Source: Jimgerdemannia flammicorona (Eukaryota). From it: a stretch of DNA of 36,659 nucleotides. Location: contig RBNJ01000208.1 in the NCBI GenBank assembly GCA_003990765.1, forward strand, positions 1 through 36,659, written 5' to 3'. Of the stretch, positions 2,561 through 33,700 are shown one piece after another. Numbering within the stretch: the stretch's first letter is position 1; each line of letters begins with the position of its first letter. Made by a program: the position numbers and the translations under genes. The notes below the pieces were generated by a model. That model searched no databases. It had not been told where the DNA came from and was given only the letters and a program-made list of their open reading frames with translations.

Positions 2561-3574
2561 CTAGTAGGAGGTGGTGAAGATGGGGCTGGTAGAGGTGGTG
2601 TAGATGGGGCCGGTGGAGGTGCTGGAGGGGGGAATGATGGAGGAGGAGGAACTAGTAGTAGGGGGCACACCAGCGCCAAGCTGGCAGCCTTGGATGGCGG
2701 CGTTCCAGTTCTGCTGGATGAGGTACTTGACGCCGTTGATGTCGATGTTGTACTTGGCGCCGTTATGCAAGGTGTTCACGGTACCATAGACGTAGGCGCA
2801 CTTGTCAGCGTTCTCGTTACCGGTGGCATCGGTCCAGCCGGAGGCTGGGTCGGGGTCGGAGATAGCCTCCATCATCTCGTGGGTGATGACAGAGCCCATG
2901 CCGTCAACACCAGGGCTATCGTTGGGGGAGTTTTTGATATTGTCGGGAGCACAGGCGGAAAGGCAGTTGGAAAGATCACCAACGAGGGCGAACTTTATGT
3001 CCTTCGACCCCAACTTGAAGTTGTTGTGGTAACCACAGTATTGTTTGCAGAGACCAGAGGTCACGTCAACATCGGGCGATGTGAGGAGGAAGTAAATGCC
3101 GTTCTCGTCGGTGACGAGGTCGCCAGAGTTGAGGTGCGCGGTAACAACATCAATGACATCTTGATCGGAGAGGGACTTTCCCTTGGAGTATTGGGCGTCA
3201 TCAATCGATTTGATGAAGTTGACCGGGCCAGTAACGTACTCCTTTTCCTTGCCAGCAAGCTGCTGGTAATAGGTCTTCTCAATGTCGAAGTAAGAGGTTT
3301 CGCCGATGTGGCTGGAAAGATTCTCCAAGATTTGCCTATCGGAGGTCTTATTCCATTGACCGTAGTAGATGTAGTAGATGTTGACGGTGCCCACCAGGAG
3401 GGGCCCACCATTGTACTTGATATTACCAGCGATGGGGGCGTGGGTGTGGAGGTTAGGCTTGAAAATCGCTGTGATCTTCTTGGAGCCAATATTAGGGGGA
3501 ACGCTGGGAGCAGCAAAAGCGGAGGCGGCGAGGAAACCCAGGAGGGCAGAAGCGACGAGGACGAGCCTGACCAT
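2561..3574 (-). CDS. Secreted PHI-1/EXORDIUM-like protein (phosphate-induced protein 1 family) with a Ser/Thr-rich tail
   Basis: Intact, intronless 337-aa ORF from ATG to TAG with a hydrophobic N-terminal signal peptide. Family-typical motifs: YNGGPLL, NIYYIYYGQW, IYFLLTSPDV, CxxYCGYH, SPNDSPGVDGMGSVITHEMMEAISDP, ENADKC, YLIQQNW. Strong C/G-ending codon bias. Confidence 0.88.
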   Translation of the reverse strand: MVRLVLVASALLGFLAASAFAAPSVPPNIGSKKITAIFKPNLHTHAPIAGNIKYNGGPLLVGTVNIYYIYYGQWNKTSDRQILENLSSHIGETSYFDIEKTYYQQLAGKEKEYVTGPVNFIKSIDDAQYSKGKSLSDQDVIDVVTAHLNSGDLVTDENGIYFLLTSPDVDVTSGLCKQYCGYHNNFKLGSKDIKFALVGDLSNCLSACAPDNIKNSPNDSPGVDGMGSVITHEMMEAISDPDPASGWTDATGNENADKCAYVYGTVNTLHNGAKYNIDINGVKYLIQQNWNAAIQGCQLGAGVPPTTSSSSSIIPPSSTSTGPIYTTSTSPIFTTSY

Positions 3575-4764: not shown

Positions 4765-6000
4765 ACGGACGATGAGTGATGAACGCAGAACGACGATGGT
4801 AATGAACAACGACTAATCCCGGGACATAGGACAATGATAAATGACGACAGAGAGTAGAGCAGCGATGAACGACGGCCAAGCACAGAATGATGATGAACGA
4901 CTACCAGGCTCAGAGCAGAACGGCAATGAACGACGACTAAGCGCAAAAGGCAATGAACGACAACTAAGCACAGAACGGCGATGAACGACGACTAAGCACA
5001 GAACGGCAATGAACGGCAATAAAGCGCAGAATGGCGACTAAGCACAGTGTAGAACGGCAATAAAGCGCAGAATGGCGACTAGGCACAGCGTAGAATGGCA
5101 ATGAACGACGACTAAGCACAGAACGGTGACGAACGACGACTAAGCACAGAACGGCAATGAACGGCAATAAAGCACAGAATGACGACTAATTACAGCGTAG
5201 AACGTCAATGAACGACGACTAAGTGCAGAACGGCGATGAATGACGACGACTAAGCGCAGAACAATGACAACGACTAAGCGCAAAATGGCAATGAATGATG
5301 AAAAAGCACAGAACGATCTAGCCCAGAGCAGTGATGAATGATGGCGACTAAGCACAGAACGACAAAGCCCAGAACAATGATGAATGACAACGATGACGAC
5401 GATCGGAACACCGAACGGCGAAGCCCAGAACGACGACGGCTAAGCCCTAAATGACGGTGAATGGCGACCAAGCGTGAACGACACTAAACCCAGAACAGCG
5501 ATGCCCGAATAGCACAGAATGATGATGACTAAACCCAATGAACGACGACTAGGCGCAGAACGGCAATGACCGACGACTATGCGCGGAACGGCGATGAACG
5601 ACGACTAGGCGCAGAACGGCAATGACCGACGACTATGCGCGGAACGGCGATGAATGACGACTAGGCGCAGAACGGTAATGAATGACAACTAATCACCGAA
5701 CGGTGATGAACGACTAAACACCGAAAGGCAATGAACAACTAAGTACTGAAAGTCGATGAACGACTAAGCCCAGAGAGATGATGAACGATGATGACGACTA
5801 AGTGAAGAGCAATGACGTCGACTAAGCGCAGAATAGCAATGAACGACGACCAAGAACAGAATGACAATGAACGACGACTAAACCCAGAGCAGCGATAAAC
5901 GACGGCTATGCTCAGAGTAGCGTAGAGTAATGACGACTAAGCCCAGAGCAGTGTAGAATGATGACGACTAAGTGCAGAAGGACAAAGAACGATGACTTAG
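4765..6000. repeat. 28-bp minisatellite array (consensus ~ACTAAGCACAGAACGGCRATGAACGACG)
   Basis: Tens of degenerate tandem copies. A near-perfect 56-bp dimer repeats around 5545-5680. Confidence 0.92.
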
Positions 6001-15000: not shown

Positions 15001-15837
15001 TCTAAGAATAATAATAATGTTTTATACTTCTTCTAAGGGTTGAGTTAAGGCTATTATTATGCTGAGATTAGATAATCCATTAATAGATCACTAGAGGGTG
15101 TCTAGAAATGATTTTATGATAATATAGATAGCTACTTCTGTATCAATAAGTATTTTTGTCTTTTGTCCTTTAATATATCTATATAGATAAATACTAATAT
15201 GTCTTTTTACAGCTTGGATAGTAGTTGGTACTAGTTTGTACTAAGGAATTAGAACTCAGTCTTTACTGGTTCTAGTGGTTCTCAATAGTTTGTTTTAAAC
15301 TTCAATTATAAAATTACAAGAAGAGAACTTCTATCTTGGCTTTTTTGAATCTTCTTTCATATGTTATCATAAATATCTTAGAATATAGTCTTTGGGATAT
15401 ACTTCTTCTTGAGTTTTAGAGTTACTGGCTCTGGTATTTTTTGCTCTATTTTCTCATCTTTAGATTTAGATATTAGTTTATCTATTTAAGAAGTAAAGGG
15501 TAAAGGAGAATGAGACGGTGAATCAATATGATCTTTAGCTTTTTCTTTTTATAGAATTCTCCTCTTCAATTTTCTAACTGGTCTATCTTTATTTATCTTT
15601 CTTTTTTCTATAAAGTAAACAATTTTCCTAGAGATAACCTTAGTTGGATATAGCTTTAGATTACTGTATTCTTTACTATCACTTTTTTTATGATATTCTA
15701 TGAGTAAGCTTTGGTCTTTTTGTATTTTTTCAGTTTGTTAATTCTAGGTCTATTTGATCATTCCTTCTATTATTATATTCTGTAATATAGTAACAAAACT
15801 ATCCACAGTTATTATTGAACTTGAGTCTTATTATATA

Positions 15838-17437
15838 CAGTGACTTCCAAAACTGGTTCAATGTTTTATTATTTTTTATTTTTTATTATAAAAAAAAATA
15901 GATAAAAATATAAAACTAGAGTATATTATAGCCCTATATTAGAGGTTTCTATAGATAATAATTTTATTATACTTATTATTAAAATTGCTATTAAAAATAA
16001 TTTTTAAAAAAGTCCATACATTGGATCAGTTTTGGAATGACTATTTCAATAAACATATTTTGTATCACAGACCATCAAAAAATTACTGTATAAGTATGAA
16101 ATTTTGAATAATTATTCTCTTAACTCCTCTCTATATACTTATATTTTTTATTTTATTTTCTATCTCTTTTTTTATTTTTTTAAAAAAAAATGAGAAAAAT
16201 TCCATTGAACACTCAAAAAACATCATTGCTCTATATAGCAATATGTCAAATTGCCAAACAGACTAGTGTTAGTAAGACAACCATAATCTGTATTAAAAAA
16301 GAGTATTGCTCTACTATATTGTTAAAAAGAGGTCATCCAAAAATACTCTCAGATTATGAAAAATTATAAATAGTTCACTAGATAACTAGTGGTAATGCTG
16401 ATATGACCCCTGAGGTTGCAAAACTACTCCAAGAAGACAGCTAAGCAAAACAACATTATTCTTGAATCATTTCATTACTATTTGTAATATATGTTTTGAG
16501 TTAAAATATCAGTTATTTCTAATTAATCTTGAAATATATAATTGATTTCTTTAATTTATTGTCAAGGATGCTTTGGTAAAGCTCGGCATTCATTGATTCT
16601 TCGATTTTGCATGCATATCCTGCATATCCTGCATATTCTGCATATCCAGCGCCATTATAATTCATGTAGCTCCAAATGGAATCGTCCCCAAACTTTAAAG
16701 TCGGTGTCATGTGGTTCTCTGTCAATTGTTCACCTGCCGCAGCCAGAAAGTCAGTACGTCTTTTGAGCCAAAATGGTTATTTGGTCTCATTAGAAAATAT
16801 AATGTACTTCTAATTAACAACTGTCCACTCTTTATATATACTTGTACATGGATTTATATTGAGCTTTTATATATCAGCAGAAGAGTTGACAATTGATAAT
16901 GAGTATGAAAACACTGCCATCCCTGGACCTAAGCCCAATCGAGCACCTGTGGGTGCATATCAGGGGTTTCTTTCACTTTATGGTAGTCTTCAAACTGACT
17001 TCCTTCAGGGCATGATGCACTGTTTAGAGCTTAATCTATGAGGAGCTACTAAAAATATATATATGAGCTTTGGGAATGTGTAGAAGTTGAATAGAATGCA
17101 ATTCTCAGCCAAGTATGGTATAGATTTAATCAATAGTATGCCAAGGTATATTGGTGTGGTGTATAAGATAAAGGAGGCTATGTAAAGTATTTATCAGTAT
17201 CATATTTAGTATTTATTGAAATAGTCGTTCCAAAACTGGTCCAATGTGTGGACTTTTTTAAAAATTATTTTCAATAGCAATTTTAATAATAAGTATAATA
17301 AAATTATTATCTATAGAAACCTCTAATATAGGACTATAATATACTCTAGTTTTATATTTTTATCTATTTTTTATATATTTTTAAAATAATAAAAAGTAAA
17401 AAATAATAAAACATTAGACCAGTTTTGGAAGTCACTA
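15838..17437 (+). mobile_element. Tc1/mariner DNA transposon (Tc1-like) with ~215-225-bp TIRs, TA TSD and an internally rearranged dead transposase
   Basis: TA|CAGTGACTTCCAAAACTGG ... CCAGTTTTGGAAGTCACT(A)|TA, with TIRs at 15838-~16053 and ~17212-17437. Transposase motifs: QIAKQTSVSKTTI, RGHPKILS, TVHHALK..KKP, WT..IFSNETK, PTLKFG, MNAELYQSIL, SLDLSPIEHLW, ELWECVEVE, LINSMPR, GGYVKY. Confidence 0.92.
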
Positions 17438-17860
17438 TATAAGATAGATAGTTTCTTACTTCTTATAACAGATAACTTCTGTTATCACAAAATAGATAGT
17501 TCTGATTTTCTTTTAATATATGGCTCTTAGTGTTTTATAGATATATAGTACAGAATTTTATTTATAGTAATTTTTTTAATTTATCTGATTAATCAGTCTA
17601 GTTTGTAGCTAAGCTTTTGAATTTTATTCTTACTTTCTTTTATTTATTTATAGAATTCTTCTCTCTTAAATTTTCTTAAAGGATTCCTTAGAGTTTTTTG
17701 ATCAAGAGGTCCTTCTTATCTTCTTTCTTATTATTATTCTAGGTGGTTTCTTTCTTAATATCAAAGTATTCTTAGACTACATATATCCACTTATTTAATT
17801 AGGTCTTTTGATATCATGAGTATAGACATACTGGGTAATATTGGGAGGGATTCTATTTAT

Positions 17861-23225: not shown

Positions 23226-24090
23226 CTTTGTCCTTTCAACCTTTTGCGAAAGCCCGAACCATCCCACACATAAGGTGGGAGCGCCCTCGAATTTCCGGAG
23301 AACCCGAAAACCAAAGCCAGTGGTCGCAAGCAAGCAAGCAATTGAAAGGAAAAGTTGATAGGTGAAAATACGCATTCCCAGCCAAGAGGTGCTCGCTCTC
23401 TTTATAAGAGGCTAATGCGAAATGTTCAAGGTTAAGGGGGCCACTTTGTCCTTTCAACCTTTTGCAAAAGCCTGAACCATCCCACACATCAGGTGGGAGC
23501 GCCCTCGAATTTCCGGAGAACCCGAAAACCAAAGCTGCTGGTCGTATGCAAGCAAGCAATTGAAAGGGAAGTTGATAGGTTGATAGCCAAAATACGCATT
23601 CCCAGCCAAGAGGTGCTCGCTCTCTTTATAAGAGGCTAATGCGAGACGTTCAAGGTTAAGGGGGCCACTTTGTCCTTTCAACCTTTTGCAAAAGCCTGAA
23701 CCATCCCACACATAAGGTGGGAGCGCCCTCGAATTTCCGGAGAACCCGAAAACCAAAGCCAGTGGTCGCAAGCAAGCAAGCAATTGAAAGGAAAAGTTGA
23801 TAAGTTGATAGGCGAAAATACGCATTCCCAGCCAAGAGGTGCTCGCTCTCTTTATAAGAGGCTAATGCCCCCTTTGTCCTTTCAACCTTTTGCAAAAGCC
23901 TGAACCATCCCACACATAAGGAGGAAGCGCCCTCGAATTTCCGGAGAACCCGAAAACAAAAGCTGCTGGTCGTAAGCAAGCAAGCAATTGAAAGGAAAAA
24001 TTGATAGGTTGATAGCCAAAATACGCATTCCCAGCCAAGAGACGCCCGCTATCTTCATAAGATGCTAATGCGAGACGTTCAGCTAAAGGA
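23226..24090. repeat. ~204-224-bp tandem repeat, 4 highly similar copies plus a degenerate tail to ~24260
   Basis: Unit start CTTTGTCCTTTCAACCTTTTGC at 23226, 23444, 23668 and 23872. Confidence 0.95.
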
Positions 24091-30799: not shown

Positions 30800-33700
30800 A
30801 ACCATTTTCAAACTCCACGGCTACCGTTTATACGACGCGCCTCACTGGCCTTAAAACGACGCGCTACACCACGTCACGCTCCCTGACCGCCTCGTAGCTG
30901 CAACTACGTCGTACCCCCCGGGCTCTATCACGACGCGCTCCACCACGATGCACTCTATCACGACACCCTCCACTGCGACGCGCTCTATCACTCAAGGCCA
31001 TCCCGAGCTGCTACCACATCGCGCCCGGTTCCTGTCACGACACACTCCACCGCTGAGGGCTCCACTACGACGCCCTCCACGGCGGCGCTCTCCAACACTC
31101 AAGGCCGCGCCCCGCGGGTCCTATCACGACGTGCTCCCCACTCAAGGCCCTTCCGTGCCGGCTACTATGTCGCGCCCCGCGGGCCCAATCACGCTCCACG
31201 ACGACGCACTCAACCACGACAACTCAAATCTGTCCCGTGGCTGCTATCACGTCGCGCCCCGCCGTCCCTATCATGACGCGCTCCACTATGACGCGCTCCA
31301 CCACGGCACTCTCCACTGCGACTCGCTTCACCACTCAAGGACGTCCCGTGGCTGCCCTATCACGACATGCTCCACGGTCCATACCACGATGCGCTCAACC
31401 ACGGCGCGCTCCACCATGACCCCTTCTACTGCGACGCGCTTTACCACTCAAGGCCTTTCCGTGACTGCTCTATCACGACGCGCTCCACCACTCCAAGCCA
31501 TCCCCCATGACGCACACCGTCACTGCTACTATTACATGCCCCACGGCTACAAGCGCAACGCACCCTGTGGAAGCTGCAGCGACGTGTCCCACCGCTCCTA
31601 TATCTATGGGCCCTGCTACCACTAGAGCGTCGTTCCCCGTGACCTTTTCCACAACCCGCCATACCGCTTCTAGCACTACGATCCCCGCCGCCACTCCAAC
31701 GACACGTCGAGCGACTGCTAGCACAACTGACCCCATGACTGCCACCTGGATGCGCCTCGCCGCTTCTATCGTATTCACCCCACCACTATTCCAACAACGC
31801 GCCCAACGGCTGCCACCTCAACGCGCCTTGCCACTTCTATCACGATGCACCCTACCGCTGCTCCAACGAAGCACCTAGCGGCTGCTACCACAATTGGTCC
31901 TGTGGCTGCCACCTCAACACGCCCCGCAGCAGCTAGCACCTCGCAAGGTGACCACGCCACCGCTCCAACGACGCACCAGCAGTTTCTAACATAACGACCG
32001 TGGCTATCACCCACGCCATGGAATTCCATCGGAGAGACTGGATCGATTACCATTTCCCAATGCCAAGGGCCGTTCGATTTGACAAGAGCGATATCATTGC
32101 ACCTGTCCCACTTTTCCTATCGTCCGTCATGCCCTATCCACAGTATATTATTTGCGCACAATGTGGAGGCCTTCATTATCGCATCATTTCCCGACCGTTT
32201 AAAACCATGCTCGCAAGGGAACTGGACCATCTCAGCGGTGACAAGATCTTCCAGAGGTTGCCGAAACACTATATACGGCACTTTTGGACTATCGTCTCGT
32301 CCATATCCAATTTGTTCCTTTTGAAGAACTAGACACGGAGGAAGTCCTGAATCGAGCTCCAAGTCAACCTCCGCAATCTCCCGCGAAACAACGACGAGTG
32401 ATAATCACAATGGTTCCAACGAGAAATGGAGAAAGACTCGAACACAGATATTAATCAAACTCTGCAATCTCCCATCGAACAACTGAACAAAAATCCTAAC
32501 CGACCTCTGCAATCTCCCGTCAAACAATGCCAAACCAGACCAACGTATTTCCGTCGCCCTTTCATTCTCGAAAATCCCGATATTCTCACCAGTAACGAGA
32601 ACAGCATATGACCGCAAGTGGGTAACGAGTTGCGGGACAATAACTGCCTCGACCACGACGCGCTCCACCACGATGCGCTCAACCACGACTCAACCCTCCA
32701 CCACTCAAGGCCGTCCTGTGGCTGCTACTACGTCGAGCTCCGCGGGCCGCGCTCAAAAAAAAAAACGACGTGCTCTGCCACGACGCCATCCACTGCGACG
32801 CGCTCCACCACTCAAGGCCGTCCGTGGCTGTCCTATCACGAGGCGCTCTATGACGATACGCTCCACCGCAACACCCTCCACCTCGAATGCGATCCACAAC
32901 TCAATGCCGTCCCATGGCTGCCCCCCGAGGCTTTATCGCGACGCACTCCACCACGGCGCGCTCCACCACGACACTCTCCACCGCGACGCTCTCGACCATT
33001 TAAGGCCGTCCCGTGGTTGCTACACATCGAGCCCTGCGGGACCTATCACGACGCGTTCCAAAACGGCGCGCTCCACCACGATGCGCTCCACCACGATGCG
33101 CTCCAACATTACGCGCTCCACCACGATGCCCTCCACCGTGAAGCGCTCCACTACTCAAGGCCGTTCCGTGGCTGCTACTACGCCGCGCCTCGCTCCACCA
33201 CACCAGACCGTCCCTTGGATGCTTCTACGACGCGTCCTACGGCTGCTCTCACGCAAGACCGTCCCATTGATGTTTCTACAACGCTTCTACGACGCGCTCG
33301 CGGCTGCTAACACATCGCGTCCCGCGGGTCCTACAACGACGCACACCGCTACTGTTACTTACGGCTGCAAGGACAACGCATCCTGCGGCAGCTGCCATGA
33401 CGCATAGCAGCTTCTATAACTATGAGCCCTGCCACCACTACAGCGACGAGCCCGTGGCTTTCTCTCAACGAGCCATGCGGCTGCTACCTCGAAGCGCTAC
33501 GCCGCTTCTATCACTACGATCCCCGCCGCAGCTCCAACGATGCGCCCAGCGGCTACTAACGTAACAGATCCCGAAACTGCCACCTTGACGCGTCCCGCCT
33601 CCTCTACCCATATGCACTCTACATCTTCCAAACCCGAGTTGAATCGCACGACCTGGCAACGGCACGTCGTCGGAAAACTAAGCAGCTGCCGCTCCACCCG

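Follow-up and report, generated by a model that had tools for sequence, protein, structure and literature searches.

Setting and Boundaries of the Element

The window analyzed here, a stretch of DNA of 36,659 nucleotides, contains a 9-kb block of 23 to 30% GC flanked by gene blocks of 40 to 60% GC. A Tc1-family element of 1609 bp lies inside the AT-rich block as a single copy, at positions 15838 to 17446. The minus strand of the same block carries remnants of RT_RNaseH_2 (E 8.5e-10), RT_RNaseH, and dUTPase (E 7.9e-6) domains between 10500 and 15836, and the RT_RNaseH_2 and dUTPase remnants indicate that the AT-rich host block is a decayed LTR retroelement. At 2564 to 3574, on the minus strand, there is an intronless open reading frame for a secreted protein of the Phi_1 (phosphate-induced protein 1) family. 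Its frame runs for 363 codons free of stops in the standard code, and the 337 residues that were queried match the Atlas letter for letter, in Phi_1 clusters. The presence of this standard-code gene in the window argues that the host is a standard-code eukaryote, possibly a fungus.

The ends of the element are laid out as follows:

15836-15837, left target-site duplication TA, adjoining the left end
15838-16053, plus strand, left TIR, starting CAGTG, with TTCCAAAACTGGT at 15845-15857 and again, inverted and with one mismatch, at 16025-16037
17212-17446, minus strand, right TIR, terminating ...CACTA (TAGTG on the other strand), with the motif TTCCAAAACTGGT at 17228-17240 and 17418-17430
17447-17448, right target-site duplication TA, adjoining the right end

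Tc1-family TIRs characteristically end in CAGTG. Here the left end reads TA followed by CAGTG and the right end reads CACTA followed by TA, with the TA target-site duplication present on both sides, and the TIR arms of ~216 to 226 nt are 91 to 92% alike with one 10-nt indel. The first-pass annotation of this DNA had described a Tc1 element between intact TIRs, and the TA flanks, the CAGTG and TAGTG ends, and the similarity of the arms bear it out. The differences between the left and right TIR are mostly C/T or A/G transitions, the first base included (CAGTG versus TAGTG).

The 13-mer TTCCAAAACTGGT occurs four times in the element, at the outer and inner limit of each TIR (15845, 16025 on the minus strand, 17228, and 17418 on the minus strand). 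Chance would account for 1.33 occurrences, and a count of four was also reached in 7 of 100 shuffles; the count alone being weak, it is the symmetrical placement of the 13-mers that points to putative two-site IR/DR ends. We take two 13-mers per end to resemble the layout of Sleeping Beauty-like Tc1 elements, whose ends are of the two-site IR/DR type. The element further resembles Sleeping Beauty-like Tc1 elements in its TA flanks, its CAGTG ends, its ~220-bp TIRs with an outer and an inner motif, and its length of ~1.6 kb. No further copy of the element was found within the window, and no TIR or 13-mer remnants were found inside the element.

The dinucleotide indices of the LTR block are mildly RIP-like, with TpA/ApT of ~1.2 and (CpA+TpG)/(ApC+GpT) of ~0.85. 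The 1-kb bin at 16001 to 17000, which holds most of the Tc1 coding interior, gave values of 0.82 and 1.48, respectively. This contrast may mean that the Tc1 copy arrived after its host element had decayed.

Identity of the Transposase Remnants

Pfam searches with 10 single open reading frames, and with a read-through of the catalytic core (piece 3 below), returned no transposase family, the only signal being weak, sub-threshold HTH matches in the first of the reading frames. Likewise, a word-indexed protein search with an 85-amino-acid reading frame against longer proteins gave nothing at an E value of ≤1e-3. A query of 147 residues was obtained by reading the minus strand of 16438 to 16878 across eight stops (five TAA, three TAG, and no TGA), and an exhaustive HMMER search with this query found 38 proteins at an E value of ≤1e-3, the best at 4.4e-10 with 38 to 40% identity. 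Eight full-length relatives of 331 to 345 amino acids were chosen from the 38 for Pfam testing, and all eight contained both DDE_3 and HTH_Tnp_Tc3_2. The remnants thus resemble proteins that have these two domains. The closest solved structure to the piece 3 read-through was the Sleeping Beauty catalytic domain (5cr4), with an E value of 0.62 and a collinear alignment. At the level of sequence similarity, with a maximum identity of ~40% to any protein found, the element is confirmed as one copy of the Tc1 family (IS630-Tc1-mariner) with transposase remnants.

The first two acidic catalytic positions are substituted (SNETK; no QDN), and the glutamate of PIEHLW is retained. A ciliate code, in which TAA and TAG would be read as glutamine, was considered and rejected on account of the TGA codons in other pieces, several stops at profile positions for W or K, and broken frames. 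The best reordered path through the interior leaves 10 in-frame stops and 10 frame corrections. Because stops and frame breaks are present in any order of the pieces, this copy of the element is dead. We take the element to have no function, and the rearrangement described below to be a by-product of its death and not the means of it.

Placement of the Gene Pieces

A profile of 341 nodes was built from eight intact Tc1-like transposases and run against the window in six frames, and nine near-full-length relatives were used as tblastn queries against the window. For pieces spread over several frames, a frameshift-tolerant profile-to-DNA alignment was written. The gene pieces, numbered by their place in the transposase, are as follows:

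16190-16442, plus strand, piece 1, the N-terminal DNA-binding part (nodes ~1-95), ending in AGCT at 16439-16442
16443-16870, minus strand, piece 3, the catalytic core (nodes ~122-265), with homology that may extend into the 7-mer at 16871-16877
16871-16903 (right limit 16898-16907), plus strand, piece 5, tentative (nodes ~285-295), fitting best after PIEHLW and starting with ATATCAG
16904-16963 (left limit 16899-16908), plus strand, piece 4, SLDLSPIEHLW with the third catalytic residue (nodes ~266-287), ending with ATATCAG
16957-17047, minus strand, piece 2, the second helix-turn-helix and the linker up to KKPLI (nodes 96-121), with ATATCAG and AGCT at its limits
17044-17191, plus strand, piece 6, the C-terminal part (ELWE..., LINSMPR..., KGGYVKY; nodes ~296-341), over three frames

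The physical order is 1(+), 3(-), [5?+4](+), 2(-), 6(+). Unlike Tc1 family genes in general, this one is not collinear, with its six pieces permuted and lying on both strands.

The profile search placed nodes 24 to 95 at 16247 to 16450 on the plus strand (piece 1; i-E 3.6e-4), nodes 96 to 122 at 17035 to 16955 on the minus strand (piece 2; i-E 0.3), nodes 135 to 240 at 16839 to 16504 on the minus strand (piece 3; i-E 1e-21), and nodes 271 to 284 at 16920 to 16961 on the plus strand (piece 4; i-E 0.03). Elsewhere in the window, no profile match was better than an E value of 6. The C terminus was missed by plain HMMER because piece 6 is spread over three frames.

A tblastn comparison with Tc1 transposases had been proposed in the first-pass annotation, and it recovered the center of the protein and the PIEHLW part with all nine queries, switching strand between them. 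Query residues ~132 to 240 aligned to 16836 to 16504 on the minus strand (E 1e-9 to 6e-15), and residues ~267 to 285 aligned to 16920 to 16964 on the plus strand (E 0.006 to 1.2). The remaining pieces were found by fewer queries: piece 2 by three of the nine (residues ~96 to 121, at 17023 to 16958 on the minus strand), piece 1 by two (the N terminus, at 16190 to 16441 on the plus strand), and piece 6 by one (the C terminus, at 17108 to 17173 on the plus strand; E 8.3). With the frameshift-tolerant alignment, z scores of 6.2, 6.4, 16.4, 6.5, and 10.0 were obtained for pieces 1, 2, 3, 4, and 6, respectively. In sub-profile scoring, for which the node ranges were picked after the alignments had been seen, none of 200 shuffles equaled the real score, and the opposite strand scored negative for each of these five pieces. 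The permuted and inverted arrangement in the original description of the locus was thereby upheld, each piece matching its own part of the profile on the strand given to it. A 9-bp tandem repeat, TGCATATCC, in ~4 units at 16612 to 16647, lies in piece 3 and adds ~9 codons.

Order and Balance of the Rearranged Interior

For scoring of the piece order, the interior was cut at the junction repeats into three segments, X (16443-16870), D (16871-16956), and Y (16957-17043), whose 48 possible arrangements by order and orientation were each scored. The present order gave -47.1 bits and ranked 46 of 48, while the collinear order Y- X- D+, as proposed in the first-pass annotation, ranked first at 106.1 bits. 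The ends do not enclose a single collinear transposase gene, given -47.1 bits for the present order versus 106 to 139 bits for reordered ones. The orientation of D was weakly fixed among the 48 orders (103.8 bits for D- versus 106.1 bits for D+), and omitting D gave 75.7 bits.

When D was opened as a circle at 16899 to 16908, the score was 135 to 139.6 bits, and the best value for reversed D was 119.9 bits. In a control in which the short part was shuffled, the mean was 133.2 (standard deviation [SD], 3.0) or 131.4 (SD, 2.8), with the real value reached in 5 of 200 or 1 of 200 shuffles. The control shows that the gain from circular permutation is mostly length fit (+26 bits with any filler), with a small residue signal besides. 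On these scores, the 86-bp fragment is best read as a putative circularly permuted piece made up of pieces 5 and 4. The first-pass annotation had also proposed a circular permutation of this fragment, with the boundary between pieces 5 and 4 at 16914 to 16917; the permutation is retained, and the boundary is placed at ~16899 to 16908 instead. Piece 5, which had been offered tentatively, is supported mainly by its length, the 86 bp being an exact fit for the gap, and otherwise by the small residue signal. The NEYEN frame read there earlier was not preferred, since it and the alternative frame score alike (139.7 versus 139.6 bits, from two ways of assigning the 7-mers).

The permuted reconstruction spans all 341 nodes, with gaps of 4, 2, 2, and 3 nodes and one insertion of ~9 codons that is the tandem repeat in piece 3. 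Removal of one copy of the 7-mer lowered the score by ~6 bits, and a duplication at the junctions is therefore not evident. The same loss weakly disfavors the idea that the 7-mer is a target-site-like duplication. The rearrangement is balanced: no junction is off by more than a few codons, and losses or duplications do not exceed ~4 codons.

Repeats at the Junctions

Two short repeats account for four of the five junctions: AGCT, at 16439 to 16442 and 17044 to 17047, and ATATCAG, at 16871 to 16877 and 16957 to 16963. At the junction between pieces 5 and 4 (16899-16908), a repeat was looked for and none was seen. P values were derived from random breakpoint pairs in the same sequence, either at the exact breakpoints or with a slack of ±5 nt per breakpoint. 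The direct 7-bp match gave a P value of 0.0008 at the exact breakpoints and 0.025 with slack, and the 4-bp inverted match (AGCT) gave 0.023 and 0.56, respectively. Since AGCT is at chance level with slack, the 7-mer alone counts as junction evidence.

AGCT had been described as joining piece 1 to piece 2, and ATATCAG as joining piece 2 to piece 3. The position of the first join stands, and the join keeps the frame and aligns to the profile with no gap; the repeat itself is not above chance with slack. The second join likewise keeps its positions, with the P values given above; through a single 7-mer copy it is one base out of frame, and it is in frame only with both copies retained.

Origin of the Rearrangement

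An exhaustive search over signed permutations gave a minimum of three inversions and exactly three minimal paths, in agreement with the earlier estimate that one inversion is insufficient and about three are needed. By a hand count, the minimum is unchanged when piece 5 is left out. In one of the minimal paths, a single inversion has the 7-mer pair (junctions J2 and J3) at its two ends, and another has the AGCT pair (J1 and J4).

On balance, and with modest confidence, we favor the explanation that this is an old, dead Tc1 copy whose interior was rejoined by unprogrammed, repeat-guided misrepair or by replication strand-switching. A Tc1 copy would have inserted at a TA within the decayed LTR retroelement, and an interior block of ~605 bp (16439-17047) would have been cut and rejoined without loss, leaving the TIRs untouched. 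Starting from the ancestral order 1-2-3-4-5-6, three inversions, nested or overlapping, would give the same outcome. Under the path suggested by the repeats, the first inversion would be that of [3 4], which 7-bp inverted repeats would have flanked in the ancestor (CTGATAT...ATATCAG); [3' 5] would then be inverted, and the whole block would finally be inverted between the two AGCT palindromes. The later inversions, we reason, would have brought the inverted 7-mer pair into the direct orientation seen now. The misrepair or strand-switching may have been guided by the short inverted repeats throughout, either in one compound accident or in several steps. The ancestral sequence assumed here is putative, as it was reconstructed from distant proteins only. 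Breakage at such a site has a precedent in PMC8277862, according to which breaks form in the interiors of TIR transposons and are repaired by microhomology-guided template switching.

Several observations weigh against this path. Independent occurrence of three rare inversions within 600 bp would be improbable. When templates are switched at short inverted repeats, the spacer between them becomes inverted, and in the cases described in PMC8604942 the spacers are 2 to 5 bp and the arms are longer than 9 bp; the path proposed here would call for spans of ~460 to 605 bp and arms of 4 to 7 bp, three times over. The rearrangement is otherwise like these template-switch inversions, and like the four-point model described in PMC5453318, in being balanced, in having short inverted repeats at the edges, and in requiring no recombinase. 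As for guidance by repeats, AGCT is not above chance, and the junction between pieces 5 and 4 has no repeat. Piece 5 is mainly a length fit.

The same observations bear on a one-step local shattering, which we hold to be a real, if minor, possibility. Five double-strand breaks within ~600 bp would have been followed by random religation through end joining, the repeats being incidental. The balanced outcome with small fragments of ~30, 55, 90, and 430 bp would fit such an event, as would the nonsignificance of AGCT and the one junction without homology, and a single event would spare us three coincident rare ones. The 7-bp repeat at J2 and J3 is, however, unexpected for blunt rejoining (P of 0.0008 to 0.025). 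It also counts against shattering that end joining seldom retains and religates fragments of 30 to 90 bp without loss. Clustered breakage with microhomology-mediated religation, the process suggested in the first-pass annotation, is possible.

We consider it unlikely that the scrambled order is an artifact of assembly or whole-genome amplification, with strand-switch chimeras or mis-joins yielding an order absent from the organism. Most amplification chimeras join sequence in inverted orientation where short stretches are complementary. The formation of chimeras in multiple displacement amplification, as described in PMC1855051, lends the artifact reading some weight. Five junctions that use each segment exactly once are nevertheless unlike random chimeras, the shared repeats of 4 and 7 bp would be far under any assembler word size, and a length of 1609 bp is ordinary for Tc1. 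Judging from the assembled sequence, we infer that the rearrangement took place in the genome rather than during assembly.

Copy-based repair seems to us quite improbable. By this account, a gap left by excision or a break would have been filled with repeated template and strand switches at microhomologies, as in interrupted gap repair or a process like FoSTeS/MMBIR. Such repair would account for a change confined between the TIRs, and it is known, from PMC8277862 and PMC3814204, to give rise to rearranged TIR elements whose breakpoints show microhomology. It yields deletions, filler, or duplications, though, while here each segment is present once, so that every switch would need to arrive where an earlier one had left off. 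The exact balance of the rearrangement thus disfavors copy-based repair and favors cut-and-rejoin or inversion at inverted repeats.

A very improbable alternative is that two copies of the same family, nested in opposite orientation and trimmed by deletions, contributed the plus- and minus-strand pieces separately. Pieces 1, 4, and 6 do follow one another as in a plus copy, and pieces 3 and 2 as in a minus copy. The pieces are exactly complementary without overlap, however, the total length is that of one element, and remnants of an inner TIR or motif are absent. In products of Sleeping Beauty autointegration, the ends of the element have been joined to a TA of its interior and thereby become internal. 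Suicidal autointegration of Sleeping Beauty, as described in PMC3952818, resembles the present case in being a Tc1-specific route to inverted internal segments. It differs in that both TIRs are terminal here and end sequence is absent from the interior. With no end sequence inside the element, we rejected both autointegration and two nested copies.

It is barely conceivable that this is a programmed scrambled gene of the ciliate type, reordered at pointers during development, since the formal match of permuted and inverted pieces with short repeats at four of five junctions is countered by a reordered gene that keeps 10 stops and 10 frame corrections, by the lack of a pointer at the junction between pieces 5 and 4, by AGCT being at chance level, and by a 337-amino-acid Phi_1-type protein in the standard code among gene blocks of 40 to 60% GC.

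Comparison with Known Systems

The misrepair or strand-switching that we favor has relatives among known processes, none of which it matches throughout. Abortive gap repair that gives rise to MITEs, and to Pack-TIRs by gap filling or FoSTeST, likewise keeps the ends, changes the interior, and leaves short homologies at the junctions (PMC3814204 and PMC8277862). The events described there delete sequence or bring in foreign sequence, whereas here none was lost or gained and segments were inverted. Ciliate scrambled genes, as portrayed in PMC9797194, share the permuted and inverted segments and the short repeats at segment ends. Unlike those genes, the reordered gene here is dead, and neither a ciliate host nor an unscrambled product is indicated. 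The likeness to ciliate pointers noted at first is therefore formal only, with a dead gene, a junction between pieces 5 and 4 that has no pointer, AGCT at chance level, and a standard-code host.

In the open-access literature searched, no described case of a scrambled or internally inverted Tc1 copy was found. A metagenome scan with the end motif TTCCAAAACTGGTNNAATGT returned 54 loci with one match each. Comparison of the element with these 54 loci by blastn gave matches of 21 to 34 nt only, and tblastn with the eight transposases gave nothing at an E value of ≤1e-3. The longest of these blastn matches (29, 32, and 34 nt) belonged to three loci that showed no matching inverted ends. We treated the 54 loci as chance matches, with no sister copy among them.

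Significance of a Scrambled Tc1 Copy

The element is an unusual variant of Tc1 in which nature has recorded a complex, balanced rearrangement of small size. To its own genome it is no more than a dead transposon without function. If the rearrangement is real, it is a clean natural case of balanced rearrangement with several junctions in the size range of 30 to 600 bp, which population and cancer surveys resolve poorly. The fixed order of motifs in Tc1 transposases serves as a built-in ruler, and every breakpoint can be placed as a result. Strand-switching matches in other transposon copies could show how common such events are, whether elements with long inverted ends are favored, and which homology is involved.

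A bolder reading, which we regard as doubtful, is that long-TIR transposons are hot spots for sub-kilobase, balanced micro-shattering or serial strand-switching, this copy being the fossil of one compound accident. Were it true, six segments of 30 to 430 bp would have been permuted at short inverted repeats with no base lost, and the case would represent a class of complex rearrangement and a route to transposon death that are invisible to ordinary annotation, in which only fragmented matches are reported. A route to transposon inactivation had been suggested for this locus from the outset, and a single copy provides no evidence for it.

Other Repeats in the Window

Several further repeat regions were noted in the window. 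A 224-bp tandem repeat occurs at 23226 to 23868 in a GC-richer block, in 2.9 copies that are 92% alike, and overlapping minus-strand open reading frames in this region repeat the same peptide. At 4862 to 5972 there are several arrays of ~28-bp units, with additional periods of 25, 31, 41, 56, and 107 bp. A strong skew of A over T accompanies these arrays, the AT skew reaching 0.53 at 5 to 6 kb. The region from 30850 to 33400, of 53 to 62% GC, contains repeats of 15, 30, 47, and 113 bp (CACGACGCGCTCCAC-like), and several of its plus-strand frames are open.
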